IMG/VR virus record: IMGVR_UViG_3300009678_000002
Coordinates: 1-64,000 of that record
DNA: 64,000 nucleotides
Source of the DNA: a virus
Taxonomy: Duplodnaviria; Caudoviricetes
Reading direction: 5' to 3' (one strand)
Shown here: piece after piece, positions 45 through 56,157 of the stretch
How the letters are laid out: each line of letters starts with the position of its first letter
Numbering within the stretch: the first letter of the stretch is position 1
The notes under the pieces: generated by a model
The model's input: the letters and a program-made list of their open reading frames with translations, nothing else
What the model was told of the DNA's origin: nothing
Databases searched by the model: none
Translations under genes and position numbers: made by a program

Positions 45-284
45 ATGACCGAGCCCGCGCAGAAGGAGCCGACGGCGGAGGAACTCGCGGAGTTACGCGA
101 GTATGCGCCGCTCCTGCCTCTGCTGCGTGCGCTCAAGCGGCAGCTGCTCGCCCAGCTGTCGAAGCCCAACGAAGTTGACCTGCCGGCGCGGCCAGGGGTA
201 CGCGCAGCAAAGCCGGACCCGACCGAGGCCGAGATCATGGCTGACGTCCTGGAACGGCGCAGGAGGCGCGGTCATGGGTCGTAG
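45..284 (+). CDS. Small hypothetical protein overlapping the integrase start
   Basis: 79-aa ORF with plausible composition. Confidence 0.5.
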   Translation: MTEPAQKEPTAEELAELREYAPLLPLLRALKRQLLAQLSKPNEVDLPARPGVRAAKPDPTEAEIMADVLERRRRRGHGS

Positions 285-1605
285 AGCCACGGGCAACGTG
301 AAGGTGCTGGCGGACGGTCGCGCGATAGCTCGGCTCGCCGGCGAGTACCTCGGGATCCATCCGAGCGAGGAGCTCGCGTGGAAGTACATCCGCGCCGCCA
401 TCAAGCTGGACTCGGGCAAGGCGCCCGACACCGTGCGCGTGTACGGGCTGCGCGTGCTCGGCGAGCGCGACAAGAGCGGCGCGGTCCGCTCGGTGAAGGA
501 TGAGTTCTCGCTGTGGCGCACGCACATCGAGACGGCGTTCTTTATCGACTGGCAGCTGCGCGCAGTGAAGCCGAGGCACATCGAGAAGTGGATGAAGCAG
601 CTCGCGAGGAAGGACGCGCTGTCACCTCGGCGCTCGGGCTCCGGCGCGAACAGGCGCACCGAGTATCGATCGCTGGGCCGCAAGATCGGCAGCGGCGTGA
701 TCGCTCACGCGCGCCGCGTGCTGATGACCGTGTTCGCCCAGGCGCGCATCGACGGCAAGGTCTCGAGCAACCCTGTCGACGGCGTGCCCGTGCCGAAGCT
801 GCGCGAGAACGTGATCGAGGATGAGGACGTCTGGACCTACCTAACGCTCGAGGAGATCGACGCGCTGTTCGCCACGCTGCCGCGCGTCGACGGCGAGACG
901 GCCGCGCGCGTGCGAGCGTCGAAGCTGCGGGCGTTCTTCGCGGTGGCCATCTACGCGGGCCTGCGCGACGGCGAGGTCCTCGGCCTGCGCTGGGCTGACC
1001 TCGTGCTTGACGGCCAGCAGCCAGCGTTCAAGGTGCGGAAGAACCGGACCGGACCGGTCAAGACCCGCGCGTCTCGGCGGGAGGTCCCGATGCTCGAGGC
1101 CGCGCGCCGCTCGCTGCTCGTGCTGCGCGTAGAGCTCGCCGCAATGCGCAAGGCCAAGGGGGATGTGGCCGCCCGGCCGTTCGACCTCGTGTTCCCTTCC
1201 GACCACGGCGGCTGCTACTCGCGCGGCTACGACTTCCACTGGGCAGACCAGAAGGAGCGGCGCGTCGTGCGCGTGCCCGGCCCCGTGCGCCTGGTCGAGC
1301 GCAGCGGCGACGTCTACGTGAACGAAGGCTGGCGCGCTCGAGCTGGCGTTCGCGAGTACGTCACGCTGCACGACCTTCGGCACACCTGCGCGAGTCACCT
1401 CGTGATGGGGAGCTGGACGCCGGCGCCGCTGAACCTGATGCAGGTGAAGGCGTGGCTCGGACACTCGTCGCTCGCGACCACGCAGCGCTATGCGCACGTC
1501 GCTCCGGGGAACCTGCACGACGCAGTGGTCGGCGAAGATTCGTGGAAAGTAAGTGGAAACGAGTTCCCTGCACCGAGAATGGACCGTGTTGGAAAACGTC
1601 GGTAA
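274..1605 (+). CDS. int: Tyrosine recombinase / phage integrase
   Basis: AGGAGG at 261-266, ATG 274; motifs GLRDGE (R), HDLRHT (HxxR), LGHSS and TTQRY (Y). Confidence 0.95.
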   Translation: MGRRATGNVKVLADGRAIARLAGEYLGIHPSEELAWKYIRAAIKLDSGKAPDTVRVYGLRVLGERDKSGAVRSVKDEFSLWRTHIETAFFIDWQLRAVKPRHIEKWMKQLARKDALSPRRSGSGANRRTEYRSLGRKIGSGVIAHARRVLMTVFAQARIDGKVSSNPVDGVPVPKLRENVIEDEDVWTYLTLEEIDALFATLPRVDGETAARVRASKLRAFFAVAIYAGLRDGEVLGLRWADLVLDGQQPAFKVRKNRTGPVKTRASRREVPMLEAARRSLLVLRVELAAMRKAKGDVAARPFDLVFPSDHGGCYSRGYDFHWADQKERRVVRVPGPVRLVERSGDVYVNEGWRARAGVREYVTLHDLRHTCASHLVMGSWTPAPLNLMQVKAWLGHSSLATTQRYAHVAPGNLHDAVVGEDSWKVSGNEFPAPRMDRVGKRR

Positions 1606-1770: not shown

Positions 1771-2223
1771 GTGAAGGGCTACGCTCGCACCCGCGTGTTC
1801 GACGCGACCACGCTCGCGATGCTGGCCGATGCCGAGCGCGCGGTCGCTGCCATCCCCGACAGCCTCGGCGAGGTTCGCTGCCACGAGGTCGCGCGCGCGG
1901 TCGCTGGCTACCTGTTCCACCGCAAGCACATCGGCCGTGCCCTGATGGCGGTCGACGGCACCTATGGCTCGCCCGGCGGCCTGCGCCACGAGCACTCGTG
2001 GATCGAGGTGTGGCCGAGCGGTAGCCCGCGGGGTCCGCTGTTCATCATCGACCCGTATGCGGTCGGCCGGCTGCCGCAGGTGCAGCTGGTCGACGCCGAC
2101 CCGTTGCACGGGCTGGCGAGCATGTACCGGGAGGGACACGAGCGCGCCGACATCGACCGAGCCCTCGCGGCCCGGATGCTCGCCGCGATCGATGAGGCGT
2201 TGACGAAGGAGCGGGTGAGCTGA
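1771..2223 (+). CDS. Hypothetical protein
   Basis: 150-aa ORF coupled to the next gene (TGATG); C...H-S-W...D motifs reminiscent of a transglutaminase-like fold. Confidence 0.6.
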   Translation: MKGYARTRVFDATTLAMLADAERAVAAIPDSLGEVRCHEVARAVAGYLFHRKHIGRALMAVDGTYGSPGGLRHEHSWIEVWPSGSPRGPLFIIDPYAVGRLPQVQLVDADPLHGLASMYREGHERADIDRALAARMLAAIDEALTKERVS

Positions 2224-3797
2224 TGACGCATCGGCCGCCATCGCTGCGCGCCGCGTACGCCTTCCCGGGCGAGCTCACGTTCGACTTCTTTGCCGGCGGC
2301 GGCGGAGCGTCGACGGGCATCGAGCAGGCGCTCGGCCGGCCGGTCGACATCGCCATCAATCACAACCCGGTGGCCATCGCGATGCACAAGGCCAACCACC
2401 CCGAGACCAAACACTTCTGCGAGGACATCTGGCAGGTCGACCCGCGCGAGGCGACCGGCGGCCGGCGTGTGGGGTTCGCGTGGTTCTCGCCCGACTGCAG
2501 GCACCACAGCCGCGCCAAGGGCGGCAAGCCGGTCGACAAGAAGATCCGCGGGCTCGCGTGGTCGGTGACGCGGTGGGCCAAGCTTGTGCGCCCGCGGGTC
2601 ATCGTGGTCGAGAACGTCGAGGAGTTCGAGGACTGGGGACCGCTCGGTCCGGACAACCGGCCGATCAGGGAACGGCTCGGCGAGCGCTTCCGCTGGTGGG
2701 TCGGCAAGCTCGAGGGGTACGGATACCGCGTCGAGTACCGGTCCCTGGTCGCCGCCGACTACGGCGCGCCGACGACACGCCGGCGGCTGTTCCTGGTCGC
2801 GCGCTGCGACGGGCAGCCGATCGTCTGGCCCGAGCCATCGCACGGTGCTGGCCGGCCTGAGCCGTGGCGTACGGCCTCGGAGATCATCGACTGGTCGCTG
2901 CCCTGCCCTTCCATCTTCGACCGCCGGCGGCCGTACAAAGAGGCCACGCTCGTGCGGATCGCGAAGGGGCTGCAGCGCTACGTGATCGGGCCCGACGCGA
3001 AACCGTTCATCGTCCCGGTCACGCACCAGGGCGACAGCCGCGTGCACTCCATCGACGAACCCGTGCGCACGATCACCGGCGCCAAGCGCGGCGAGTTCTC
3101 GCTGGTGACCCCGTACGTCGTGCGCCATGGCCACTACTCGTACCGGACCGGCGCAGGCCTGCGCGAGGGCTGCGGAGCGGGCACGTTCCGCGGGCAGCCG
3201 CTGCAGCTCCCGCTCGCGACCGTGTGCGCCACGAACGACAAGCACCTCGTCTGCCCCATCGTGACCAAGCATTACGGCGGCGTGGTCGGGCACGAGGTCG
3301 GCCGCCCACTCGGCACCGTGACCGCTCGAGACCATCACGCGCTGACCGCGGCGTTCCTGGTCAAGCACTACGGCACGTCGCACTCGGCCAGCGTCGAGCT
3401 GCCCGTGCCCACGATCACCAGCGGCGGCGGCCGCGGCGGCGGGCACATCGCGGAGGTGCGCGCGTTCCTGATCAAGTACTACGGCGCAAGCGGCCGGCAC
3501 TCCGCGCAGCAGTTGCTCGAGCCGCTGCACACGCTGACGAGCAAGGCGCGGTTCGGGCTCGTGATGATCCACGGCGAGCCGTACCAGGTCGTCGATATCG
3601 GAATGCGAATGTTGCAGCCGCACGAGCTGTTCGCCGCGCACAACTTCCCCGAGCACTACGACATCACGACAGGACCGCACGGCAGGCGCCTGACCAAGAC
3701 CGAGCAGATCAGCCTGGTCGGCAACAGCGTGTGCCCAGACCAGGCGGCAGCGGTCTCGAGCGCGCAGGTCGAGCGGCCGGAGGCAATCGCATCATGA
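2223..3797 (+). CDS. C5-cytosine DNA methyltransferase
   Basis: Motifs FFAGGGG, SPDC, ENV, RRRLF and C-terminal GNSV. Confidence 0.95.
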   Translation: MTHRPPSLRAAYAFPGELTFDFFAGGGGASTGIEQALGRPVDIAINHNPVAIAMHKANHPETKHFCEDIWQVDPREATGGRRVGFAWFSPDCRHHSRAKGGKPVDKKIRGLAWSVTRWAKLVRPRVIVVENVEEFEDWGPLGPDNRPIRERLGERFRWWVGKLEGYGYRVEYRSLVAADYGAPTTRRRLFLVARCDGQPIVWPEPSHGAGRPEPWRTASEIIDWSLPCPSIFDRRRPYKEATLVRIAKGLQRYVIGPDAKPFIVPVTHQGDSRVHSIDEPVRTITGAKRGEFSLVTPYVVRHGHYSYRTGAGLREGCGAGTFRGQPLQLPLATVCATNDKHLVCPIVTKHYGGVVGHEVGRPLGTVTARDHHALTAAFLVKHYGTSHSASVELPVPTITSGGGRGGGHIAEVRAFLIKYYGASGRHSAQQLLEPLHTLTSKARFGLVMIHGEPYQVVDIGMRMLQPHELFAAHNFPEHYDITTGPHGRRLTKTEQISLVGNSVCPDQAAAVSSAQVERPEAIAS

Positions 3798-6043: not shown

Positions 6044-6426
6044 ACACCGAGCAGCGTCTATCCGCGATCCTGTCTCGCGTTCATTACCGCGACTGGCACA
6101 TCGCGCTGCGCCTCGACGGCGAGCGCTTCTATCTGCAGGTGCAGTTCGAATCTCCGTGCATCGTGAACGGCGCGCCGATGCGGCAGCACGGTCGCAAGTG
6201 GATGCTCTCGCCGCACATGAGCACGAGCGAAGTCGTGGCGACCGCGTTCAAAGCTTGCCTCGCTGCCGAGGAGCACGAGTGCAGAGAAGCGTTCCGCTAT
6301 CGCGGACAGCCCGTGTTCGGTCCGCACGTCGACGTAGAGTGGATGGCCGCGCAGATGGAAGCGCGCTCGGTCACTGACGTCAGGCCCGAGCGATCGGAAA
6401 GGAACATCAGCCATGAGCGAGATTGA
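6040..6426 (+). CDS. Phage hypothetical protein
   Basis: GRKWMLSPHM...SEVV...EEHECREAF...FGPH motif. Confidence 0.7.
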   Translation: MNTEQRLSAILSRVHYRDWHIALRLDGERFYLQVQFESPCIVNGAPMRQHGRKWMLSPHMSTSEVVATAFKACLAAEEHECREAFRYRGQPVFGPHVDVEWMAAQMEARSVTDVRPERSERNISHERD

Positions 6427-7231
6427 GTTCACCGCCGGCGGCGAAGTGCACGCGCTGCAGGTCCAGCACTACCCAGACGGCGCACCGCGCGTGGCGCACG
6501 GCGCCGACGAGAGCGCCATCTTCGCCGTGCTGCTCCGGCCACGGAGCCTCGACACGTTCTTCGCTGCGCTGTTCTGGATCGACGCGCTGCGCCACCGCCA
6601 CGGCCACAGGCACACGCTGCTGCTCCCGTTCGTCCCCGGCGCTCGGCAGGACCGCTTGACGCTGACCGGCGATCGGCTGTTCACGCTGCGCTCGGTCGCC
6701 CAGGCCATCAACGATCGGCAGTTCGACTTCGTGCACGTGCTCGACCCGCACTCGGACGTCGCCCCGGCGCTGATCGAGCGCTGCGTCGTCATGAGCCCCG
6801 CTGACATCCTCGAGACGCACCGCGACCTGCCCACCTATCAGGCAGTGATCGCCCCGGACGGCGGCGCAGAGAAGCGCGCGGGCGCGGTCGCCCGCATGCT
6901 CGGCGTCCGCCTGCTGCGTGCGTGGAAGACGCGCGAGGTCGGCACCGGGAAGATCTCGGGCTTCGGCTGCGAGCCGATCCCGGCCGGCGTGTCGCGCGCG
7001 CTCGTGGTCGACGACATCTGCGACGGCGGCGGGACGTTCCTCGGGCTGCGCGAAGTCCTGCCGAACGCGCTTGAGCTCGACCTTTACGTGACGCACGGGC
7101 TGTTCAGCGCGGGCACCGAGAAGCTGCTCACGAGCTTCGGCCACATCTACTGCACGGACTCGATCATCGCGGACCGACCGGGCGTGACCGTTCTGCCGAT
7201 CTGCCAAACGCAACTGAGAGAAGGAGCTTGA
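6413..7231 (+). CDS. Ribose-phosphate pyrophosphokinase-like protein (probable NARP1 Adps)
   Basis: YPDG, PGARQDR, DPHS, APDGGA, VVDDICDGGGTF and VTHG motifs. Confidence 0.9.
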   Translation: MSEIEFTAGGEVHALQVQHYPDGAPRVAHGADESAIFAVLLRPRSLDTFFAALFWIDALRHRHGHRHTLLLPFVPGARQDRLTLTGDRLFTLRSVAQAINDRQFDFVHVLDPHSDVAPALIERCVVMSPADILETHRDLPTYQAVIAPDGGAEKRAGAVARMLGVRLLRAWKTREVGTGKISGFGCEPIPAGVSRALVVDDICDGGGTFLGLREVLPNALELDLYVTHGLFSAGTEKLLTSFGHIYCTDSIIADRPGVTVLPICQTQLREGA

Positions 7232-7233
7232 CC

Positions 7234-8685
7234 ATGAATCCGATGACACTGATCGACGGCTACAAGCTGGACCACCGGCGGCAATACCCGCGCGGGACGA
7301 CGCGCGTCTACAGCAACTGGACACCACGGAGCTCGCGCATCGAAGGCGTCGACGCCGTCGTGCTGTTCGGTCTGCAGTACTTCGCGCGCCGCTACCTCAT
7401 GGACACGTTCGGCGAGTTCTTCGCGGGCGACCGCGACATCGCAGCCGCCAAGTACGCGCGCCGCGTCAGCGGCTACCTCGGACCGAACGAGATCGGCGCG
7501 GCACACGTCGCTGCGCTGCACGAGCTCGGCCACCTGCCCGTGAGGATCTGCGCCGTGCCCGAAGGCACGCACGTCCCGCTGCGGGTGCCGATGCTCACGA
7601 TCGAGAACACGCACGACGACTTCGCATGGGTCGTCAACTACCTCGAGACCCTGATGTCGAGCGTGCTCTGGCACCCGTGCACATCGGCAACGCAAGCGCT
7701 CCGCATGCGCGCGCGCCTCGACCTGGCGGCGCTCGCGACCGGCAGCCCGGCGGAGTTCGTTCCGTGGCAGGGCCACGACTTCAGCTTCCGCGGGATGGTC
7801 GGTCCCGACGCCGCGGCGCTGAGCGGAGCCGGTCACCTGCTGGCGTTCACCGGCACCGACACCATGCCCGCGCTCGACCTGATCGAGAACTACTATGGCC
7901 CGCTGCCGGCCGACTACATGCTCGGCGGTTCGGTCGCAGCGACGGAGCACTCGGTCATGTGCGCCGGCGGCGAGGAGGGTGAGCTGCAGACCTTCGAGCG
8001 GCTGCTCGAGCTCTACCCGTCCGGCATCGTGTCGGTGGTCTCGGATACCTGGGACCTGTGGCACGTGCTCGTGAACGTCCTGCCGCTGCTGCGCGAGCGC
8101 ATCATGGCGCGCGCGGGCAAGCTCGTGATCCGTCCCGACAGCGGCGACCCGGCCGACATCGTGTGCGGCGACCCGAGCGCGGCGGCAGGCTCACCCGCGC
8201 GCCTCGGAGTGATCGAGTTGCTGTGGAACCTGTTCGGCGGAACGACCACGAGCACCGGTCACCGGCTGCTCGACGCGCACGTCGGCTGCATCTACGGCGA
8301 CTCCATCAACTACGACCGCGCGCGTGAGATCACGGACAGGCTCGCGGCGAAGGGCTTCGCGAGCGCGAACATGGTGTTCGGCGTCGGCAGCTACACCTAT
8401 CAGTACGTGACGCGCGACACGTTCGGGTTCGCGCTCAAGAGCACATGGGCGCAGATCGATGGCAAGGGCGTCGACATATTCAAGGCGCCGAAGACCGACG
8501 ACGGCACGAAGAACTCTGCCAAAGGTCGGCTCGCAGTGCTGCGCGACGAGCACGGCATGAAGCTCGTGAACCAAGCGACGCCCGAGCAGGAGGCAGCATC
8601 GGAGCTGCAACCCGTGTGGAGCGATGGCGCGTTCATCCGCACCGAGACCTTCGCGCACATCCGCGCGCGCGCGCTGCGTCGCTAG
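7234..8685 (+). CDS. Nicotinamide phosphoribosyltransferase-like protein (probable NARP1 Namat)
   Basis: DGYKLDH..QYP, HDFSFRG, ATEHSV, SVVSDTWD, IRPDSGDP, IYGDSI, SAKG. Confidence 0.92.
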   Translation: MNPMTLIDGYKLDHRRQYPRGTTRVYSNWTPRSSRIEGVDAVVLFGLQYFARRYLMDTFGEFFAGDRDIAAAKYARRVSGYLGPNEIGAAHVAALHELGHLPVRICAVPEGTHVPLRVPMLTIENTHDDFAWVVNYLETLMSSVLWHPCTSATQALRMRARLDLAALATGSPAEFVPWQGHDFSFRGMVGPDAAALSGAGHLLAFTGTDTMPALDLIENYYGPLPADYMLGGSVAATEHSVMCAGGEEGELQTFERLLELYPSGIVSVVSDTWDLWHVLVNVLPLLRERIMARAGKLVIRPDSGDPADIVCGDPSAAAGSPARLGVIELLWNLFGGTTTSTGHRLLDAHVGCIYGDSINYDRAREITDRLAAKGFASANMVFGVGSYTYQYVTRDTFGFALKSTWAQIDGKGVDIFKAPKTDDGTKNSAKGRLAVLRDEHGMKLVNQATPEQEAASELQPVWSDGAFIRTETFAHIRARALRR

Positions 8686-15347: not shown

Positions 15348-16012
15348 TGGAGGCGTGGGCATTCGTGGGAATCATGTCGGTGGTCCTGTTCGAGCTCGCG
15401 CGCGGGATCAACGGCAGGGTGTACGCCGCCCCCTCGGGCGATACAGCCGACACCTACAGGGCGCGAGCGCGTCTCCTGACCGTGGCCCGGGGAGTCGTGT
15501 GGACGGCGCTGGTCGCGGTGATGCTCTGGCGCAAGCACGGTTGCGCGAGTTGCGTATCGGCCGCTGATTCTCTGTCAGAAACAGGCACGCCCGCGCGTCA
15601 TAAGAACATGGAAACAGACATGAACCGAACCGCCGCATTCTTCTCCTGCGAACGTCACGACGCCTTCGGCATCGGGGTCGCGACCTGCGCGCTCTGCGAT
15701 GCCGAGCGCAGTGAGCTGCTCGCGCTCGGCTACCTCTGCGGGATCACCGGCAGCCTGTCCGAGGGCTCGCTCGACGCCGCGCGCTGGCGCGACATGGCGG
15801 CCGTCGCGCGCAAGCTCGGCGTGCGCGGAGTCGTGCCGAACGCGTGGCCGGTCATCTGGCGGCGGGGCTACAACGACGGCCTGCTGCGGAAGTTCCCGGG
15901 CTGGTGGGGCCGGCGCGTCACCGAGCTCGGCGCGGCCGACCTCGAGCTGTACGAGCGCGTGAGCCGGGCAGCGATCGAGAAGGCGCGCGCGCACCAGCGG
16001 CAGCCGACTTGA
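15344..16012 (+). CDS. Hypothetical protein (may be two genes, with an internal start near 15608)
   Basis: TM-rich N-terminal half then CERH...CALC. Confidence 0.45.
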   Translation: MMEAWAFVGIMSVVLFELARGINGRVYAAPSGDTADTYRARARLLTVARGVVWTALVAVMLWRKHGCASCVSAADSLSETGTPARHKNMETDMNRTAAFFSCERHDAFGIGVATCALCDAERSELLALGYLCGITGSLSEGSLDAARWRDMAAVARKLGVRGVVPNAWPVIWRRGYNDGLLRKFPGWWGRRVTELGAADLELYERVSRAAIEKARAHQRQPT

Positions 16013-16037
16013 CGTCGATCCGCGCCGCCCTCATAGT
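16009..16037 (+). promoter_or_regulatory. Promoter of the tRNA array
   Basis: TTGACG-17-CATAGT. Confidence 0.65.
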
Positions 16038-16047
16038 GCTAGCCATC

Positions 16048-16176
16048 GTGACCAGAGCACTGCCGATTTCAATGTGGCGAGCGAGCGGGCTGTTTAGCTC
16101 GTATCGCGCCGCCACATCTGCGTCGGCGGTCGATACGTGCCCCAAAGCCAACCGCCACCAGGAGGGTACCGGCTAG
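16048..16176 (+). CDS. Putative leader peptide of the tRNA-array attenuator
   Basis: GTG 10 nt after the -10 box; 42 aa; stop 30 nt upstream of the terminator hairpin. Confidence 0.45.
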   Translation: MTRALPISMWRASGLFSSYRAATSASAVDTCPKANRHQEGTG

Positions 16177-16206
16177 GGGGCGTCATTCGTTGCATCGCGA
16201 TCACGC

Positions 16207-16252
16207 GAAACGAGGGCGCCCCGGAAAAACCGGCGGCGCCCTCAGTCGTTTC
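16207..16252 (+). terminator. Attenuator hairpin immediately before the first tRNA
   Basis: GAGGGCGCC-CCGG-AAAAA-CCGG-C-GGCGCCCTC followed by AGTCGTTTC. Confidence 0.6.
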
Positions 16253-16253
16253 T

Positions 16254-16335
16254 GGAGCTGAGCTCAGATGGCCTGAGAGCGCGCTGTAAACGCGCCGCAC
16301 GTTGTGCAGACGGGGTTCGATTCCCTGCAGCTCCA
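16254..16335 (+). tRNA. tRNA-Tyr(GTA)
   Basis: GCGCG-ctGTAaa-CGCGC; long variable arm. Confidence 0.9.
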
Positions 16336-16382
16336 CCGAGGACCCAATGCGAGAGGAGAAACGTTAGCCGCATCCCAAGCAC

Positions 16383-16454
16383 GGGAGCGGCGCTCGATGG
16401 CAGAGCACCCAGCTTTTACCTGGACCTCCGGCGGTTCGATTCCGCCCGCTCCCA
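16383..16454 (+). tRNA. tRNA-Lys(TTT)
   Basis: CCAG-ctTTTac-CTGG. Confidence 0.85.
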
Positions 16455-16466
16455 CCGCATGCACGC

Positions 16467-16540
16467 GCTGCGCACGGGTCAATGGTGACCCACCCGATTC
16501 TTACTCGGGCACCCGCTGGGTTCGATTCCCAGGCGCAGCA
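16467..16540 (+). tRNA. tRNA-Lys(CTT)
   Basis: CCCGA-ttCTTac-TCGGG. Confidence 0.88.
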
Positions 16541-16579
16541 CCGACGCTCTGTGAAAACCGAATAGGCTGTTTCGTTTAT

Positions 16580-16625
16580 GGGCGCATGCGGGCGCGGGCT
16601 TGCTCGTGTTCGTGTGCGCCCACCA
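16580..16625 (+). ncRNA. CCA-ended hairpin (tRNA-like minihelix)
   Basis: 19-bp uninterrupted stem with 6 G-U pairs, CTTG loop, 3' ACCA. Confidence 0.6.
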
Positions 16626-16626
16626 T

Positions 16627-16704
16627 CCCAAGGCACGTCGCGACGGTCAGACGGCCAAACTGTTAATTTGGTGTGCGGGGGTTCGAGTCCCTCCCTTGGG
16701 GCCA
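16627..16704 (+). tRNA. tRNA-Asn(GTT)
   Basis: CCAAA-ctGTTaa-TTTGG; GCCA end. Confidence 0.9.
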
Positions 16705-16705
16705 T

Positions 16706-16773
16706 GGGTCGTGCGCCGGGCGCAGCTGCGGTCTCCAAAGCCGTGCGGCGAGGTTCAACTCCTCGACGGCCTG
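16706..16773 (+). tRNA. tRNA-Trp(CCA)
   Basis: GCGGT-ctCCAaa-GCCGT; short D arm. Confidence 0.8.
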
Positions 16774-16774
16774 C

Positions 16775-16847
16775 GCCGCTCTCGCGTATGTGGTCAGCGC
16801 GCCCGGTTGAAGCCCGGGAGGACTTCGTTCGATTCGAAGGGGCGGCA
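16775..16847 (+). tRNA. tRNA-Phe(GAA)
   Basis: CCCGG-ttGAAgc-CCGGG. Confidence 0.85.
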
Positions 16848-16887
16848 CAAGCTTTCTTATCCTCGTCACAAGTTTCGTTACCCTCAC

Positions 16888-16962
16888 GCGCGCGTCGCCT
16901 AGTGGTATGGCGCCACCTTGCCAGCGTGGATCTCGCGGGTTCGATTCCCGCCGCGCGCACCA
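16888..16962 (+). tRNA. tRNA-Gly(GCC)
   Basis: CCAC-c-ttGCCag-c-GTGG; CCA end. Confidence 0.9.
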
Positions 16963-16964
16963 GA

Positions 16965-17040
16965 GCACCCGTCGTCCAGCGGTTCAAGACGGCCGCCCTT
17001 CAAGCGGCAGAGCTGGGTTCGATTCCCAGCGGGTGCACCA
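16965..17040 (+). tRNA. tRNA-Glu(TTC), C33
   Basis: GCCGC-ccTTCaa-GCGGC. Confidence 0.85.
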
Positions 17041-17044
17041 GCAT

Positions 17045-17117
17045 TGCGGCGACCACAGGGATGGCGCTGGCGCTTTGAACGCCACGCGAGATCGTTCGAG
17101 TCGATCCGCCGCAGCCA
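17045..17117 (+). tRNA. tRNA-Gln(TTG)
   Basis: TGGCG-ctTTGaa-CGCCA. Confidence 0.85.
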
Positions 17118-17125
17118 CGTTTCAC

Positions 17126-17196
17126 TCGGGCGTCCATAGGATGGCAGGCGGACTCTGACTCCGCCGGCGAAGGTTCGAGTCCTTCCGCCCGGACCA
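17126..17196 (+). tRNA. tRNA-Gln(CTG)
   Basis: GCGGA-ctCTGac-TCCGC. Confidence 0.85.
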
Positions 17197-17197
17197 T

Positions 17198-17269
17198 GCA
17201 GCCATGCGCATCTGGTGATGCGGCTCGATTGTCGATCGAGTGAGACGAGTTCGATCCTCGTTGGCTGCG
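17198..17269 (+). tRNA. tRNA-Asp(GTC)
   Basis: CTCGA-ttGTCga-TCGAG. Confidence 0.85.
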
Positions 17270-17274
17270 CCGAT

Positions 17275-17350
17275 GTCCCGTTCGTCTAGGTGGCAAGGAT
17301 GCGAGGCCCTCAACTTCGCGACGCCGGTTCAACTCCGGCACGGGACGCCA
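17275..17350 (+). tRNA. tRNA-Glu(CTC), C33
   Basis: CGAGG-ccCTCaa-CTTCG. Confidence 0.85.
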
Positions 17351-17351
17351 C

Positions 17352-17436
17352 GGAAGGTGAAGCAGCAGCGGTGCTGCACCGGTTTCGAAAACCGGCGAGC
17401 GCGCAAGCGTTAGGGGTTCGACTCCTCCGCCTTCCG
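17352..17436 (+). tRNA. tRNA-Ser(CGA)
   Basis: CCGGT-ttCGAaa-ACCGG; long variable arm. Confidence 0.9.
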
Positions 17437-17441
17437 CCGAT

Positions 17442-17524
17442 GGAGAGCAACGCGATCCGGGATCGCCGCGGTTTGCTAAACCGATGGAGCCGCAAGGCTT
17501 GAGGTCCGACTCCTCTGCTCTCCG
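17442..17524 (+). tRNA. tRNA-Ser(GCT)
   Basis: CGGT-ttGCTaa-ACCG; long variable arm. Confidence 0.85.
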
Positions 17525-17529
17525 CCGAC

Positions 17530-17604
17530 CGAGGTGTAGTCTAGTGGCAAGACGCGCGTTTTGGGTACGCGAGCTCGGGAGTTCGATTCTCTCCACCTCG
17601 ACCA
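17530..17604 (+). tRNA. tRNA-Pro(TGG)
   Basis: CGCGT-ttTGGgt-ACGCG. Confidence 0.92.
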
Positions 17605-17605
17605 T

Positions 17606-17682
17606 GCTGATCGAACGCCAATGGATGGCGGCCGCGTTGTGGACGCGGTGCGAGCTGGGTTCGATTCCCGCCGGTCAGCCCA
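17606..17682 (+). tRNA. tRNA-His(GTG)
   Basis: CCGCG-ttGTGga-CGCGG; G-1:C73 pair. Confidence 0.9.
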
Positions 17683-17683
17683 A

Positions 17684-17756
17684 GCTCTCGCAGCACGATT
17701 GGACGTGCAGGCGTTTCCTAAACGCGAGGCTGCGGGTTCGAGTCCCGCCGAGAGCG
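17684..17756 (+). tRNA. tRNA-Arg(CCT)
   Basis: GCGT-ttCCTaa-ACGC. Confidence 0.88.
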
Positions 17757-17760
17757 CTGC

Positions 17761-17832
17761 GCGCGTGTCGTCCAATGGTCAGGGCGCCGGCCTGATATGC
17801 CGGAGACGAGAGTTCGATTCTCTCCTCGCGCA
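17761..17832 (+). tRNA. tRNA-Ile(GAT)
   Basis: CCGGC-ctGATat-GCCGG. Confidence 0.88.
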
Positions 17833-17836
17833 CCGC

Positions 17837-17908
17837 GGACCGCTAGCTCAGTGGTGAGAGCTGCAGGCTTATACCCTGCGCGGGGCAGTTCGATTCTGCC
17901 GCGGTCTA
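17837..17908 (+). tRNA. tRNA-Ile(TAT)
   Basis: GCAGG-ctTATac-CCTGC. Confidence 0.88.
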
Positions 17909-17909
17909 C

Positions 17910-17985
17910 GACGCTGCAGCTCAGTGGTTGAGCGCCTGCCCGACGAGCAGGAGATCTATCGGTTCGATTCCGATCAGCGTCACCA
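17910..17985 (+). tRNA. tRNA-Val(GAC), C33
   Basis: CCTGC-ccGACga-GCAGG. Confidence 0.85.
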
Positions 17986-17986
17986 T

Positions 17987-18060
17987 GGGGACGTAACACA
18001 ACGGGCGTGTGCTGGTCTTGCAAACCAGAAATGCGGGTTCGACTCCCGCCGTTTCCACCA
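17987..18060 (+). tRNA. tRNA-Ala(TGC)
   Basis: CTGGT-ctTGCaa-ACCAG; G3:U70 pair. Confidence 0.92.
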
Positions 18061-18061
18061 T

Positions 18062-18134
18062 GCCGGCGATGCTCGTGAGGACGGGCGCCGCACTCGTAAC
18101 GCGGACACAGCGGGTTCGACTCCCGCCGCCGGCT
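18062..18134 (+). tRNA. tRNA-Thr(CGT)
   Basis: CCGCA-ctCGTaa-CGCGG. Confidence 0.85.
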
Positions 18135-18139
18135 CCGTC

Positions 18140-18210
18140 GCTCTCGTAGCACAGTGGCAGTGCTCGGTCCTGGTACGACCGAGACCGCGGTTCGATTCCG
18201 CGCGAGAGCT
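18140..18210 (+). tRNA. tRNA-Thr(GGT)
   Basis: CGGTC-ctGGTac-GACCG. Confidence 0.9.
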
Positions 18211-18215
18211 CTACT

Positions 18216-18286
18216 GCCGACGCGGCTCGATGGTCGAGCGCCCAGCTTGTACCTGGGAGGAACGCGTTCGATTCGCGTCGTCGGCT
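18216..18286 (+). tRNA. tRNA-Thr(TGT)
   Basis: CCCAG-ctTGTac-CTGGG. Confidence 0.9.
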
Positions 18287-18292
18287 CTGCAC

Positions 18293-18363
18293 GCGGGCAT
18301 CGTTCAACGGTAGGACGACTGGCTTCCACCCAGTAGACGCGGGTTCGATTCCCGCTGCTCGCA
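18293..18363 (+). tRNA. tRNA-Gly(TCC)
   Basis: ACTGG-ctTCCac-CCAGT. Confidence 0.92.
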
Positions 18364-18368
18364 CCGCC

Positions 18369-18441
18369 GGCGCGATCCTTCCGGCGAAGGCGCGGCGCTG
18401 CAAACGCCGTGAGTCCGGTTCAACTCCGGATCGCGCCTCCA
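18369..18441 (+). tRNA. tRNA-Cys(GCA)
   Basis: CGGCG-ctGCAaa-CGCCG; U73 then CCA. Confidence 0.9.
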
Positions 18442-18442
18442 T

Positions 18443-18519
18443 GCTCTCGCAGCTCGAGAGGAACGAGCGCCGGGCTTCTATCCCGGAGCGTGTCGGTTCG
18501 AGTCCGACCGAGAGCGCCA
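18443..18519 (+). tRNA. tRNA-Arg(TCT)
   Basis: CCGGG-ctTCTat-CCCGG. Confidence 0.9.
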
Positions 18520-18520
18520 A

Positions 18521-18595
18521 GACCGCGAGGCCCGAAGGATGGGCGCCAGTCTCCGAAGCTGGTCGGTGCTGGTTCGAGTCCAGCCGCGGTCGCCA
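18521..18595 (+). tRNA. tRNA-Arg(CCG)
   Basis: CCAGT-ctCCGaa-GCTGG. Confidence 0.9.
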
Positions 18596-18596
18596 T

Positions 18597-18681
18597 GTCT
18601 CCGTCGTCCAGAGGAAGGGCACCGCGCTACGAACGCGGGCGCGCAAGCGCAACGCAGGTTCGAATCCTGCCGGAGACGCCA
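18597..18681 (+). tRNA. tRNA-Arg(ACG) with long variable arm
   Basis: CCGCG-ctACGaa-CGCGG; extra GCGC-GCAA-GCGC arm. Confidence 0.88.
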
Positions 18682-18682
18682 C

Positions 18683-18751
18683 GCCGCCGAGTGCAGGGCA
18701 CGGGCTCGTTTCATACGCGAGCGCGCGACGGTTCGAGTCCGTCCGGCGGCA
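18683..18751 (+). tRNA. tRNA-Met(CAT), elongator (or Ile2)
   Basis: CTCGT-ttCATac-GCGAG; short D arm. Confidence 0.8.
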
Positions 18752-18755
18752 CCGC

Positions 18756-18828
18756 GCGCGTCTTGTCGTCTGGTGACGGCGTCGGTCCTACAAACCGAAG
18801 CAGCAGGGTTCGATCCCCTGGGCGCGCA
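18756..18828 (+). tRNA. tRNA-Val(TAC), C33
   Basis: TCGGT-ccTACaa-ACCGA. Confidence 0.85.
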
Positions 18829-18852
18829 CCGATGTGCTTGCTATGTTCTCGA

Positions 18853-18925
18853 CGCGGCGCGGCGGAGATGCCGGTCTGGGCTCATAACCCGAACCAACCA
18901 GGCGCGACTCCTGGGGCCGCAACCA
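18853..18925 (+). tRNA. Initiator tRNA-fMet(CAT), divergent
   Basis: GGG-ctCATaa-CCC, C1xA72 mismatch, atypical T loop. Confidence 0.75.
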
Positions 18926-18926
18926 A

Positions 18927-19002
18927 GCTGACGTAGGCTAATCGGCAAAGCTGCTCCGCTCAAAACGGAGCGAATGGTTGGGTTCGAATCCCCCCGTCAG
19001 CA
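18927..19002 (+). tRNA. tRNA-Leu(CAA), short variable region
   Basis: CTCCG-ctCAAaa-CGGAG. Confidence 0.85.
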
Positions 19003-19006
19003 CCGC

Positions 19007-19080
19007 GCTGCGCTGGCCCAATTGGCAGAGGCGTCTGATTCAGGATCAGAAGGTTGAAGGTTCGACTCCTTCGCGCAGCA
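19007..19080 (+). tRNA. tRNA-Leu(CAG), short variable loop
   Basis: TCTGA-ttCAGga-TCAGA. Confidence 0.88.
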
Positions 19081-19115
19081 CCGACACGAGGCAGCCTGTT
19101 CGGAGAGACCGCGCC

Positions 19116-19733
19116 ATGACCGCCGCAACTCAAACGCTCGTGCTCGACTCAGCCTATGCGCCGCACCGTGTCGTGCGCTGGCAGCGCGCGGCGCAGCTCC
19201 TGAGCGCGGGGCGCGCCGAGGTCGTCGAGCTCTACGACGACGCCGTGCGCGCGGTGTCGCGCGACGTCGCCAAGACGCTGGACGTCAGCAAGCAGATGAT
19301 CGCGTGGTTCGAGCTGGGCGTCGACGACTCGGACCCGAGCGTCTACATCGTGCGCGTGCCGTCGGTGGTCCGGCTGCTGTCGAACGTGGGGCGCAAGCGC
19401 GCGGTCAAGTTCTCGCGGGTGAACGTGCTCACTCGCGACGGGTTCCGCTGTCAGTACTGCGGCGCGCGCAAGCGGATGCAGGAGCTCAACTTCGACCACG
19501 TGGTGCCGCGGTCGCAGGGCGGCCGGACCACGTTCGAGAACGTCGTCGCCAGCTGCTACCCGTGCAACGAGCGCAAGCGCGACCGCACGCCGGCGGAGGC
19601 CGGGATGGTCCTGCGCTCGGTGCCCGTGCGGCCGAAGTCGCTTCCGATCGCGGCGCTGCGCGCGGACCTGCTGCGCGAGCCGCACGAGTCGTGGCGCTCG
19701 TGGCTGTACTGGCACGTCGAGCTCGAGCCCTGA
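19116..19733 (+). CDS. HNH endonuclease (McrA-like, tRNA-array associated)
   Basis: FSRVNVLTRDGFRCQYCG...DHVVPRSQGG...NVVASCYPCNERK. Confidence 0.92.
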   Translation: MTAATQTLVLDSAYAPHRVVRWQRAAQLLSAGRAEVVELYDDAVRAVSRDVAKTLDVSKQMIAWFELGVDDSDPSVYIVRVPSVVRLLSNVGRKRAVKFSRVNVLTRDGFRCQYCGARKRMQELNFDHVVPRSQGGRTTFENVVASCYPCNERKRDRTPAEAGMVLRSVPVRPKSLPIAALRADLLREPHESWRSWLYWHVELEP

Positions 19734-46531: not shown

Positions 46532-47689
46532 TCAGGTGGTGATGCTGGTGATCAGGAAGCCGGCGTCTGCCGCCACGATCTTGTGGTCCTCGGAGACCGC
46601 GACCTTGGCGTAGATTCCGCCGCGCTTGCCGGTCTTCGGGTCCGCCCACTGCGTGGTCAGCGGGTCGCCGTTGCTGCGGAAGGTCGTTCCGAAGTGGAGC
46701 GACCGGCGGCTCGGACGCACCGCGACCGAGAGGATGCCGAACACGTCGCCGGTGACCATGCGAGCGTATGTCGCCGTCTGACCGTCGTTGGCCGTATCCT
46801 CGCGTGCGCGGGTGACGAGCAGCTCGTCGAGACCGAACCACCCCGCGACCATCTGCGGCGTGATGAGGCCGGTCTGCACGTACTTCATGCGCTCGGCCAG
46901 CGCCGCGTTGTTGATGATGCCGCTGTTCCACACGCCGAGCGAGCAGAACGCCACCTTGCGGGTCGGCGTCTGCCCGACCCACAGCGCATCCTTCGCCGCG
47001 GTGATGTCCGCGATGATGGTGCCGCCGGTCGAGTCGCTCCAGTTGGTCGACGCGGTGGTCGTGTTGCTGCCGTAGCTGCCCGAGGCAGCGACGATCGCGA
47101 GGATGCGCTTCTCGCGCCGGAACGCGATGCCCTCGTTGATGGCCTCGACCAGGTCGACCATTTCATCGAAAGGCGCGTCCTGGTTCTGGATCGTCTCGAG
47201 GTCGAGGAAGTTCAGGTAGCCGTAATCCTTGACCGAGTAGTTGTCGGTCGTGCGGCTCGCGTCGACTTCGTTCGGCACACTGCGCGATCCGATCTCGTCA
47301 TCCGGGAACGCGAGGCGTTCACGCTTCGGATAGATCGCGTAGTAGTCCGACCGCTTCGACACCGGCACGGCCGGCATCAGCCGCTCGCCGATGTACTCGT
47401 CATTGGCGTACTGCACCGACATCTCTGCGAGCAGAGTGTCGACGTGCACGCTGACGGGGTTCACCGAGCGCACGATGAGCTCGCGGCGGTACGCCTCGCC
47501 ATGCACCTCGCAGCCGAGGCCGCGGATGAAGTCGAGGTTCTTCGCCTTGAGGATCTTCTTGCTGTCCTCGGTCATGCCCGCGAGCTGGTCGCGGACCTTG
47601 TTCATCATCGCCTCGTATGCGAGGCCTTTCTGGGTGCGCGAAATGGGCGCTTCTCGGCCCGCGCCCCCAAGCATGTTGTGCTGGAGCAT
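46532..47689 (-). CDS. Major capsid protein
   Basis: VD..L..MSVQYAN..YIG..LMP.VPV.K, REKR, KIVAADAGFLI; position after cement gene. Confidence 0.9.
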   Translation of the reverse strand: MLQHNMLGGAGREAPISRTQKGLAYEAMMNKVRDQLAGMTEDSKKILKAKNLDFIRGLGCEVHGEAYRRELIVRSVNPVSVHVDTLLAEMSVQYANDEYIGERLMPAVPVSKRSDYYAIYPKRERLAFPDDEIGSRSVPNEVDASRTTDNYSVKDYGYLNFLDLETIQNQDAPFDEMVDLVEAINEGIAFRREKRILAIVAASGSYGSNTTTASTNWSDSTGGTIIADITAAKDALWVGQTPTRKVAFCSLGVWNSGIINNAALAERMKYVQTGLITPQMVAGWFGLDELLVTRAREDTANDGQTATYARMVTGDVFGILSVAVRPSRRSLHFGTTFRSNGDPLTTQWADPKTGKRGGIYAKVAVSEDHKIVAADAGFLITSITT

Positions 47690-47795
47690 CTTGATTACCT
47701 TTGTTGGAATGGAGGGTTGAGAGACGAGAGCGCGCGCGCGGCGAGCGACATGCCCGCCGCGGTCATCGATCACTCGACGATCAGCCGGTCAGCGA

Positions 47796-54428: not shown

Positions 54429-54969
54429 ACGACTCCGGCTTCATGAACGCTTCGACCATGTCGAGCAGGTCCTGCAGCTCGGCGAGCACGCGCACGTCCA
54501 GGCGGTCGCCGAACATCCCGTGCAGGTCCTTGCCGAGCGCGATCCACGCCGCATTCGAAGCACCGAACTGCTCGGCGGCCGCGGCCTTGCGCGCGTTACT
54601 CTTGAGCGCGCGCGTGATTTCAGTGCGCGAGACCTTCGCCTCTTCGTCGAGCCGACGGTCGAACGCCTCGATCGCTGCCTTCACGCGCGGCTTCTGCCGC
54701 AGCTTGTGACCGATCGAGATGCTGCTCGCGTGGTTGGCCTTGCTGCCAGCGCGCCGGACCGCGAGCGATGCATCTCGGCACTGCACGAACTCGCGCACGA
54801 ACGCGCGCTCGAACAGCGTCAGGTCCTCGGCGACCGGCGCAGCGGTGCATTCGTGCGCCTCGCGCAAGAACTCCGCGTCGTCCTCGCTGCCGCGCTCCGC
54901 CTGCTCCTGGGCGTTGCGCAGGAACGCCAGGACATGCGCGCGGGCTTCGCTGACGGGGGCCGTGGCCAT
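54337..54969 (-). CDS. terS: Terminase small subunit
   Basis: FVREF...DASLAVRRAG...L..PRVKAAI...LGKDLHGMF. Confidence 0.85.
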   Translation of the reverse strand: MATAPVSEARAHVLAFLRNAQEQAERGSEDDAEFLREAHECTAAPVAEDLTLFERAFVREFVQCRDASLAVRRAGSKANHASSISIGHKLRQKPRVKAAIEAFDRRLDEEAKVSRTEITRALKSNARKAAAAEQFGASNAAWIALGKDLHGMFGDRLDVRVLAELQDLLDMVEAFMKPESYADLVHAIAKAQGDEAVAGAEVPEDHSEVH

Positions 54970-55048
54970 GGGGTGCCTCTGGGGAAACCCCGCCAAAACC
55001 AGGGGGATAACGCGGGTTTACGGGGGTGCCGAAGATTCTTTAGAACAC

Positions 55049-55102
55049 CGCTTGCAACAGTCTGCATGCTCGTGCATGGTGTTCGCCATGGACACGACGC
55101 AA
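55049..55102 (+). promoter_or_regulatory. Leaderless promoter, copy B1
   Basis: TTGCAA-17-CATGGT-7-ATG; repeated at 57573. Confidence 0.65.
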
Positions 55103-55954: not shown

Positions 55955-56157
55955 GACGCCTCGAAGAACAAACCACGTACGACGGCTGGCTGCGCGATGA
56001 ATGGCAGCCCGCAATGGGAGAGCACCCGCGGACCGCTGGCATGCGCGACGAGGACGTCACGCGGTACGTGCGCGAGTGGAACAAGAAGGCGAAGGCCGAG
56101 GGCTGCAACACGCGCCTGCGCAGCGTCGAGGTCGACGAGTACGGAGACGAGTCATGA
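55951..56157 (+). CDS. Hypothetical protein
   Basis: ATGA coupled at both ends. Confidence 0.55.
   Translation: MRRLEEQTTYDGWLRDEWQPAMGEHPRTAGMRDEDVTRYVREWNKKAKAEGCNTRLRSVEVDEYGDES

Follow-up and report, generated by a model that had tools for sequence, protein, structure and literature searches.

The question raised by this locus is why a tailed phage that carries an integrase should also carry more than thirty tRNA genes, and what decides when they are transcribed. The locus occupies positions 16,009 to 19,733 of a 64,000-nucleotide stretch (hereafter the window), which is the first 64 kb of the IMG/VR virus record IMGVR_UViG_3300009678_000002 (Duplodnaviria; Caudoviricetes; 91,405 bp, 68% GC), and consists of a promoter, a short leader open reading frame (ORF), a terminator-like hairpin, a dense array of tRNA genes, and an HNH endonuclease gene. 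The reason why phages carry tRNAs has been argued over for fifty years, and the current favourite, the replacement of tRNAs destroyed by host defences, lacks a regulatory link. A first-pass annotation of the window, made from the sequence alone, had described the locus as an operon of 34 tRNAs, apparently wired for rescue from translation stress. On balance, we favour a related reading, in which the locus is a horizontally mobile cassette of the long tRNA array (L-array) type, comprising an attenuator whose leader frame specifies every amino acid, the tRNA genes, and the HNH gene. If the switch does sense slow decoding of any amino acid and transcribes spare tRNAs in response, it would supply the missing regulatory link and take leader-peptide attenuation beyond amino-acid synthesis, to the tRNA pool.

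A leader frame containing all twenty amino acids

The promoter match is unique within the 6 kb between positions 14500 and 20500, where 0.3 matches were expected, and the GTG start codon of the leader frame (16048) lies 10 nt past its − 10 hexamer. Homologous leaders precede tRNA-Tyr in three other phage arrays, L034 (42 codons), L037 (39 codons), and L068 (40 codons), in each of which a TTGAC(G/A)-17-(C/T)AT... promoter stands 6–10 nt ahead of an ATG start codon; the N-terminus of the window's peptide, MTRA, aligns with those of L034 and L068. The promoter and the leader ORF of the first-pass annotation were both recovered, the latter being real as a frame.

All four leader frames contain all 20 amino acids. 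Such a composition has a chance of ~0.004 in a peptide of 42 residues and of 0.002 in one of 39, by proteome frequencies and by real protein windows alike, and among the other short ORFs of the genome, 0 of the 111 six-frame ORFs of 36–45 codons had more than 18 kinds of amino acid. The four peptides share between 2 and 14 identical residues pairwise and their single-copy residues lie at differing positions; because the peptides have diverged and the single-copy residues have moved, it seems to be the completeness itself that is kept. A stop-anchored test across the fetched loci, which is independent of the choice of start codon, considered frames of forty codons: of the 158 whose ends lie no more than 200 nt from the tRNA that opens a run, 3 had 20 kinds, versus 4 of 8186 elsewhere (Fisher p = 2e-4). 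This test replaced a looser scan for small ORFs with at least 19 amino-acid kinds, which was dropped as too permissive (5% background). Every amino acid in the window's leader is specified by at least one codon that the array can read. Judged from its composition, a leader with all 20 amino acids is what a general sensor of translational slowdown would need.

Other small frames with similar compositions were encountered near tRNA arrays. In L019, whose array is the most syntenic with that of the window, a canonical terminator follows a 50-codon frame with all 20 amino acids (L019:1252-1404), and 116 nt separate this frame from the first tRNA. Small frames of another, unrelated family (...KLNT.EC..P...AW.AS..IQFGGMK; L041:3564-3662, L045:2988-3086, and L094:3310-3426) have 19–20 amino-acid kinds in 32–38 codons and lie 158–806 nt upstream of the first tRNA of arrays of the type Ile, Trp | HNH | His...

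A predicted RNA switch ahead of the first tRNA gene

The terminator proposed in the first-pass annotation stands as a strong hairpin (Table 1) but not as a textbook terminator, as its U tract is poor and interrupted and it was not called by a terminator scan. Homologous hairpins are present in L034 and L037, one of them with a compensatory change from a C-G to an A-U pair, and an exact-pattern scan for the hairpin matched only these two contigs. Good U tracts follow in the leaders of L034, L068, and the provirus L018, and L037 likewise has a hairpin with a U tract; an Rfam search returned no match in the window's leader. Because the hairpin ends 10 nt ahead of tRNA-Tyr, there is no room for another promoter before the first tRNA gene.

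When the window's transcript is folded as if cut before the 3′ arm of the terminator, the 5′ arm pairs upstream with a probability of 0.97, versus 0.56 in shuffled sequences, with 0 of 100 shuffles as high; in L034, L037, and L068, respectively, 4, 4, and 0 of 100 shuffles were as high. The upstream partner in these three relatives consists of the last codons of the ORF, which pair with the terminator 5′ arm as GCCCUCGAU with GUCGAGGGC in L034, GCCCUCGACU with AGUCGAGGGC in L037, and GCCCUAAUCU with AGAUUAGGGC in L068. Three of these antiterminator pairs have changed on both sides among the three leaders; the changes were read by hand, as a column-wise count of pairs on an alignment was dropped given that the helices are register-shifted between leader subtypes. 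The window's stop codon comes earlier than in these relatives, and its antiterminator strand begins just past the stop, within the footprint of a terminating ribosome. The same is true of L018, where the strand also begins 2 nt past the stop and is built from a different sequence, the frame ending in ...QEGLP where that of the window ends in ...QEGTG. The attenuator layout is thereby present in four other phage arrays.

Masking the RNA under a ribosome footprint lowered the antiterminator pairing only when the ribosome was placed at the last codon positions, stop included: the last 4 in the window, 13 in L034, and 11 in both L037 and L068. In silico, the antiterminator and the terminator are mutually exclusive and the choice between them depends on the position of the ribosome.

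Proposed working and its principal alternative

From these elements we infer the following sequence of events. Transcription would start at the sigma-70-like promoter, and the all-amino-acid frame would open the transcript almost immediately. Under fast translation, a ribosome would reach the stop codon and cover 16178-16192, the terminator would form, and transcription would stop 10 nt short of tRNA-Tyr. The ribosome would lag if codons of any class were decoded slowly, whether because a tRNA was depleted or cleaved, through starvation, or under a ribosome inhibitor, and 16178-16192 would then be left to pair with the terminator 5′ arm (16209-22) while RNA polymerase reads on; read-through is also predicted where the ribosome is late or absent. 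The product would be one long precursor holding the tRNAs and the HNH mRNA, to be cut by host RNases, and the extra tRNAs could buffer the translation of the phage, and possibly of a lysogen, against the loss of host tRNAs without fully replacing the host pool. Tentatively, and with conviction falling a little short of even, we therefore picture the leader as a portable "universal decoding sensor", a near-leaderless mini-gene with all 20 amino acids joined to an antiterminator/terminator switch that would turn on spare tRNAs when any aminoacyl-tRNA becomes limiting, for example under attack by anticodon nucleases. Such a sensor could work in a lysogen because no phage protein is needed. What can be said for the rescue wiring proposed at first pass is thus the attenuator layout of promoter, ORF, and terminator, the composition of the leader, and a switch that is conserved in silico. 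At ~245 bp, the leader is also a simple, reporter-ready element for probing tRNA-targeting immunity.

Several observations weigh against a sensor. Within the leader family, the window's member convinces least: its GTG lies ~3 nt from the predicted transcript start, it has no Shine-Dalgarno sequence, its U tract is interrupted, and its GC content at third codon positions (GC3) of 0.71 is less coding-like than the ~0.88 of the phage's genes. Its codons are not better matched to the array than those of the genome, 36 of 42 (86%) being readable versus an average of 88%. Masking by a ribosome has a modest effect in the window, where pairing drops from 0.87 to 0.60, and the terminator 5′ arms of these GC-rich leaders pair in shuffled sequences too (means of 0.5–0.65). 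The leader of L018 has only 18 amino-acid kinds, and the four complete leaders are homologous and so are not fully independent samples. On the side of the output, CTC, GCC, and CCC cannot be read by the array, and about nine of the tRNAs score poorly on the Rfam tRNA model, their function not being assured.

The alternative that survives best, which we consider unlikely though worth serious attention, is that the locus is an ordinary accessory tRNA cassette that senses nothing. The frame would be a small protein gene or noise, the hairpin would terminate the frame or the upstream operon, and the tRNAs would be made by leaky read-through or constitutively in lytic growth, serving codon supply or host range. 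Phages indeed often have clusters of tRNA genes with HNH genes, and an integrase is encoded by 23 of 226 phages bearing tRNA clusters (PMC6409571). The coding-like GC3 of the L034 and L037 frames (0.86 and 0.82) and their conserved motif WCV.GH.Y...EAL could mean a functional peptide, and the low GC3 and poor start of the window's frame, together with the ease of alternative pairing in GC-rich RNA, fit this explanation too. It is harder to reconcile with a composition expected in 0.2–0.4% of cases being kept in four diverged leaders while the single-copy residues moved, with three antiterminator pairs changed on both sides in a helix that always overlaps the end of the ORF or the footprint at its stop codon, or with a 10-nt gap between hairpin and tRNA-Tyr into which a promoter cannot fit.

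The tRNA array and its decoding capacity

ARAGORN at default settings called 29 tRNAs, all on the + strand between 16254 and 19082. Rfam contributed three genes more, Asp-GTC (17198-17269), Ser-GCT (17441-17524), and Thr-CGT (18062-18134), and re-read an ARAGORN "Gln" at 18737-18830 as Val-TAC at 18754-18829. The supported total is 32 genes, to which a probable Gln-TTG and one initiator-like remnant can be added, giving 32–33 genes in 2.83 kb on one strand with 33 anticodon entries for 20 amino acids (Table 1). The co-orientation and complete amino-acid coverage described at first pass are therefore correct, as are the anticodons listed as present (TTT, TTC, TAT, TCT, TAC, and, as a probable gene, TTG) and as absent (GGC, CGC, CGG, GAG, CAC), while its count of 34 stands only if the probable Gln and the degenerate second Met-CAT are taken as genes. 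An initiator tRNA was also claimed, which is not supported: the solid Met-CAT is an elongator and the second CAT belongs to the remnant, which has the initiator hallmarks of a GGG/CCC anticodon stem, C1xA72, and a GCAACCA end but has an aberrant T loop (CGCGACT), forms no cloverleaf, and drew neither an ARAGORN call nor an Rfam match at E ≤ 10. Rfam likewise gave no match for the probable Gln-TTG even at E ≤ 10.

Twenty-three genes score above the Rfam tRNA threshold and nine are atypical, being matched best by the selenocysteine (Sec) tRNA model or falling below threshold. In the ARAGORN drawings, the acceptor, anticodon, and T stems are mostly paired, and Ser and Tyr have long arms. Isotype order, judged by eye only, has no periodic pattern. 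Many spacers are only 1–5 nt, because of which internal promoters lack room within the array. A wider spacer (16543-16626) holds a perfect hairpin with a fold z of − 3.5, preceded by the motif GTGAAAACCGAATAG (16551-16565), which is common only to the L037 contig; the spacer could be a processing or protein-binding site. Short tRNA-Leu genes (74–78 nt) that lack the long variable arm are frequent in phage arrays, occurring at 18927-19082 of the window and in L015, L017, L023, L025, and L028.

Table 1 Features of the tRNA locus and the integrase gene (positions in the window; "Sec", Rfam selenocysteine tRNA model; "relaxed", ARAGORN at relaxed settings)
Feature	Position	Strand	Evidence
Tyrosine integrase, only one	103-1605		
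Sigma-70-like promoter TTGACG-17-CATAGT; −35 overlaps stop codon of upstream gene	16009..16037	+	pattern scan
Leader ORF, GTG start, 42 codons + TAG (16174-16176), near-leaderless, 20 amino acids, GC3 0.71	16048..16176	+	
Antiterminator 5′ strand, starts 2 nt past stop codon, within terminating-ribosome footprint	16178..16192	+	folds of transcript cut before terminator 3′ arm
Antiterminator 3′ strand, overlaps terminator 5′ arm	16209..16222	+	same cut-transcript folds
Terminator-like hairpin GAGGGCGCCCCGG-loop-CCGGCGGCGCCCUC, −29 kcal/mol; tail CAGUCGUUUCU (16244-16253) abuts tRNA-Tyr	16212..16243	+	
tRNA-Tyr GTA, long variable arm	16254..16337	+	ARAGORN; no Rfam tRNA match
tRNA-Lys TTT	16383..16456	+	ARAGORN; Rfam 49.0 bits
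tRNA-Lys CTT	16467..16542	+	ARAGORN; Rfam Sec only, 24 bits
Intra-array hairpin, perfect 20 bp, no U tract	16579..16622	+	fold z −3.5
tRNA-Asn GTT	16627..16704	+	ARAGORN; Rfam 27.5 bits, below threshold
tRNA-Trp CCA, mismatched stems, overlaps Asn 3′ end	16699..16774	+	ARAGORN; Rfam Sec only, 21 bits
tRNA-Phe GAA	16775..16848	+	ARAGORN; Rfam 49.2 bits
tRNA-Gly GCC	16888..16962	+	ARAGORN; Rfam 55.6 bits
tRNA-Glu TTC	16965..17040	+	ARAGORN; Rfam 54.0 bits
Probable tRNA-Gln TTG, 3-bp D stem, GCCA end	17045..17117	+	cloverleaf = minimum-energy fold; relaxed only
tRNA-Gln CTG	17126..17196	+	ARAGORN; Rfam 34.6 bits
tRNA-Asp GTC	17198..17271	+	Rfam 48.4 bits; relaxed
tRNA-Glu CTC	17275..17350	+	ARAGORN; Rfam 45.7 bits
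tRNA-Ser CGA	17352..17438	+	ARAGORN; Rfam Sec 44.8 bits
tRNA-Ser GCT	17442..17526	+	Rfam Sec 44.4 bits; relaxed
tRNA-Pro TGG	17530..17604	+	ARAGORN; Rfam 59.6 bits
tRNA-His GTG, G-1:C73	17606..17682	+	ARAGORN; Rfam Sec 28.3 bits; sequence read
tRNA-Arg CCT	17684..17757	+	ARAGORN; Rfam 46.7 bits
tRNA-Ile GAT	17761..17834	+	ARAGORN; Rfam 64.8 bits
tRNA-Ile TAT, reads ATA	17837..17909	+	ARAGORN; Rfam 57 bits
tRNA-Val GAC	17910..17985	+	ARAGORN; Rfam 58.9 bits
tRNA-Ala TGC	17987..18060	+	ARAGORN; Rfam 62.6 bits
tRNA-Thr CGT	18062..18134	+	Rfam 35.8 bits; relaxed
tRNA-Thr GGT	18140..18211	+	ARAGORN; Rfam 61.9 bits
tRNA-Thr TGT	18216..18287	+	ARAGORN; Rfam 52.1 bits
tRNA-Gly TCC	18293..18365	+	ARAGORN; Rfam 66.7 bits
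tRNA-Cys GCA	18369..18441	+	ARAGORN; Rfam Sec 35.1 bits
tRNA-Arg TCT	18443..18519	+	ARAGORN; Rfam 50.6 bits
tRNA-Arg CCG	18521..18595	+	ARAGORN; Rfam 50.4 bits
tRNA-Arg ACG, 85 nt, unusual long variable arm	18597..18681	+	ARAGORN; Rfam 50.9 bits
tRNA-Met CAT, elongator: G1-C72, no GGG/CCC anticodon stem	18683..18753	+	ARAGORN; Rfam 33.7 bits
tRNA-Val TAC	18754..18830	+	Rfam Sec 40.6 bits; relaxed
Initiator-like tRNA remnant (second CAT) CTCATAACCC	18853..18926 (about)	+	sequence read
tRNA-Leu CAA, 78 nt, without the long variable arm usual in bacterial tRNA-Leu	18927..19004	+	ARAGORN; Rfam 50.9 bits
tRNA-Leu CAG, 76 nt, short variable loop	19007..19082	+	ARAGORN; Rfam 59.2 bits
HNH endonuclease gene, 205 aa, GGAGAG ribosome-binding site	19116..19733	+	Pfam HNH_5 4.9e-15; phrog_16726

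Codon usage was counted over 19,965 codons of 72 phage genes, with decoding by standard wobble rules. The array reads 88% of these codons, leaving without a reader CTC, which is the commonest Leu codon (48% of Leu codons), as well as GCC, CCC, GCT, and TCC, and it includes tRNAs for rare codons, among them ATA (11 occurrences), AGA (16), AAA, and TTG. A tuned codon supplement, judged on the phage's own usage, was rejected: common and very rare codons are covered alike, and CTC, GCC, and CCC are missed. The first-pass annotation had argued that the set does not compensate for codon bias, which holds in that it is not a tuned supplement, but its further description as a replacement pool fails, as the host pool could not be replaced by an array with no reader for CTC, GCC, or CCC. 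Because the order of the tRNAs is common to unrelated phages, the anticodons give the impression of having arrived with a mobile cassette and not of being tuned to this genome.

The gaps in the set could also be read as decay, the array having been acquired as cargo of the HNH cassette, mostly silent or non-functional, and kept only by the selfish nuclease. We regard this as improbable. The initiator-like remnant, the weak Gln gene, the nine genes that fare poorly on the Rfam tRNA model, and the degraded leader copy are all what decay would leave, as is the lack of a Leu GAG or AAG anticodon where CTC is the top Leu codon, given that both AAG and TAA are among the Leu anticodons of L017, the closest relative. 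Against this stand the 23 genes that clear the threshold, the mostly paired stems, the preserved tight packing, and the retention of expected features such as the His G-1 and the long arms of Ser and Tyr; odd shapes, such as the short Leu tRNAs, recur in related arrays at many loci.

The HNH gene

The terminal HNH gene of the first-pass annotation was borne out by its Pfam match (Table 1). It starts 34 nt past the last tRNA and is probably co-transcribed with the tRNAs. The protein also matches the HNH family, and its CxxC...H...N...CxxC columns are invariant across 42 homologues. A structural model (pLDDT 85) has a C-terminal HNH fold of the Cas9/IscB/Gme type and an N-terminal beta-rich domain; a fold search recovered only the generic HNH core, with no PDB match for the N-terminal domain.

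As the first-pass annotation stated, HNH genes co-occur with tRNA arrays: of the 80 IMG/VR loci in which this HNH has a homologue, 79 have tRNA or tmRNA genes within 4 kb, nearly all on the same strand. The nearest gene upstream of the homologue is a tRNA-Leu in ~43 loci (mostly CAA) and a tmRNA in ~14. The arrangement recurs in Myxococcus phage Mx1 and Virus Rctr197k. The nearest relative, in L017, is 72% identical, on a contig that ends inside the array and lacks the leader region. On a Nostoc plasmid, a homologue with 39% identity lies 200 nt from a 27-tRNA array, which is the published arrangement for all8564 and the Anabaena trn operon (PMC8421152). Among cellular homologues, at most two tRNA genes lie within 5 kb in 77 of 80 loci (none in 67, one in 10), and these homologues form separate chromosomal clades in Alphaproteobacteria and Vicinamibacterales. 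In the array-free alphaproteobacterial loci (L134, L142, L145, L150, L155, L167, L171), a single tRNA-Leu(CAA) often lies 1.2–4.3 kb downstream on the same strand, a pairing that echoes the adjacency in phage arrays.

By analogy with SegB (PMC13096335), the protein is most likely a homing-type DNA nuclease that would keep and spread the cassette. Its fixed position and its array-free chromosomal clades are atypical of a sporadic selfish insert, and because of this fixed place beside tRNA-Leu or tmRNA and these cellular clades there is room for another role.

Kinship and mobility of the cassette

The array belongs with the L-arrays already described, including the HNH gene that usually accompanies them. 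Its tRNA order is common to L019 and L021, with a longest common order of 17 versus 8.2 expected (z 7.4, 0 of 500 shuffles), and matches seven further arrays more weakly. The flanking genes and the portal differ between the window and the phages that share the array, and one carrier, L018, encodes an integrase and has been classified as a provirus. As judged from these comparisons, the array is a horizontally mobile cassette. The window's leader is homologous to those of the L034, L037, and L068 group, whose arrays follow another order, and the body of its array is syntenic with L019 and L021; because leader and array body match different groups, the leader, the array body, and the HNH gene appear to be separable modules, which would recombine among unrelated phages, integrating ones included.

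The phage and its other genes

The record is a complete 91.4-kb tailed phage with an integrase. Its completeness is 100% (CheckV), and its terminal 20 bases repeat its first 20. It encodes a tailed-phage major head protein (46532-47773), a portal (50415-51851), a large terminase (52872-54428), a tape-measure-like protein, and the replication genes for a DnaB-type helicase, a replication initiator, and an exonuclease. The phage had been called temperate at first pass; the tyrosine integrase and an HTH_3 protein agree with this, but no prophage copy was found and no lysogen seen. A cultured-phage collection contained no close relative, the portal being at most 31% identical to any entry. Sampling of 301 Myxococcota and 301 Acidobacteriota genomes turned up capsid relatives in 4 and 5, respectively, of which the sole close match (48% identical) is from one Myxococcota genome and is too weak for host assignment; this distant relative is integrated there, with no array within ~30 kb of its capsid gene. 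A weak tRNA-Asp-like sequence directly after the integrase gene (1623-1695, − strand; ARAGORN, relaxed settings) may be an attP remnant of a tRNA integration site.

Lambda pR′/tR′ has a promoter, a leader, a hairpin, and then an operon, and the window's promoter, ~200-nt leader, strong hairpin, and operon, on a phage with an integrase and an HTH regulator, resemble it; yet a purely lytic-phase module of this kind, in which a constant promoter would be stopped at the hairpin in the lysogen and read through after induction by a phage-encoded processive antiterminator, deserves very little credence, as no Q-, N-, or put-like element came to light (for the upstream 389-aa protein, neither relatives nor a family were found), a factor-independent switch better fits a leader that moves with arrays between unrelated phages, and the all-20 frame would be left unexplained.

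Further genes of counter-defence type are present. A Prs-like ribose-phosphate pyrophosphokinase gene (272 aa) overlaps by 4 nt that of a NAMPT-like phosphoribosyltransferase (485 aa; NCBIfam NF006629, 2.4e-162) at 6413-8685 (+), a pair that we take to resemble the phage NAD+-reconstitution pathway NARP1 (Adps + Namat), which counters NAD-depleting defences. A DpdA-family protein (record position 82722-83552; Pfam PF23859, 2.3e-90) suggests 7-deazaguanine modification of the phage DNA, and DNA methyltransferase genes lie at 2223-3797, 58776-60311 (ParB-fused), and 76240-77325 of the whole record. Beside the terminase gene, an amidoligase gene (phrog_2443, 1e-75) is followed by one with a gamma-glutamyl cyclotransferase-like domain (54719-56989, +).

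Comparison with known systems

Arrays of tRNA genes, their HNH companions, a minority of carriers with integrases, and the counter-defence hypothesis have all been described before (PMC5966550, PMC6409571, PMC12803027, PMC10264068). Like other L-arrays, the one described here has dozens of dense, co-oriented, supernumerary tRNA genes of ~20 isotypes, a kind of array that spreads horizontally on phages and plasmids, and it has the commonest companion gene, an HNH endonuclease, as a homologue of the one on the Nostoc plasmid. In the latter the HNH gene is upstream of the array, whereas here it is at the 3′ end, and the carrier here is a 91-kb integrase phage of 68% GC.

Homing endonuclease genes, such as T4 SegB and the HNH genes of cluster M mycobacteriophages, also lie within or beside tRNA genes and are thought to mobilise the tRNAs that flank them; SegB amplifies anti-defence tRNA loci (PMC13096335), and homing nucleases in tRNA regions are cited in PMC8421152 and PMC6409571. 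SegB is, however, a GIY-YIG enzyme, and the HNH family considered here differs further from homing endonucleases in keeping its place just 3′ of tRNA-Leu(CAA) or tmRNA across very divergent phages and in having large array-free chromosomal clades.

That phage tRNAs counter tRNA-cleaving immunity was hypothesized by van den Berg et al. 2023 (PMC10264068), and the tRNA-Tyr of T6 acts against Septu (PMC13096335). A broad phage set could similarly restore decoding after cleavage of host tRNAs, and the first genes of the array, Tyr, Lys-UUU, Lys-CUU, and Asn, are of isotypes hit by known anticodon nucleases. The Anabaena array is induced by translational stress, to which the induction proposed here can be likened, and the link that the first-pass annotation drew to it holds as far as the HNH homologue beside the Nostoc plasmid L-array is concerned. 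It does not extend to control, as the Anabaena array is regulated by the repressor TrcR and direct repeats in its promoter (PMC8421152, PMC10272220) and has no leader peptide, unlike the leader-peptide-type element of the window.

The closest likeness in control is to the attenuators of amino-acid operons (trpL, hisL, pheL, thrL, and the multivalent ilvL), which also place a short promoter-proximal ORF and an intrinsic terminator ahead of the regulated genes, and in which the antiterminator forms only if the ribosome is short of the end of the ORF, slow decoding leading to read-through. Those attenuators regulate biosynthetic enzymes, whereas tRNA genes follow here; the leader here does not repeat one amino acid but has each at least once and many only once; and the predicted mRNA here is near-leaderless. 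The 1:2 "superattenuation" helix is also not needed, since the untranslated state is predicted to be ON in the cut-off folds. A literature search found no published leader-peptide attenuator of tRNA genes. The array cassette itself is of a known kind and the control element would be a new form of leader-peptide attenuation; if the leader does act as a decoding sensor, no earlier attenuator would be known to control tRNA genes or to monitor the tRNA pool as a whole.

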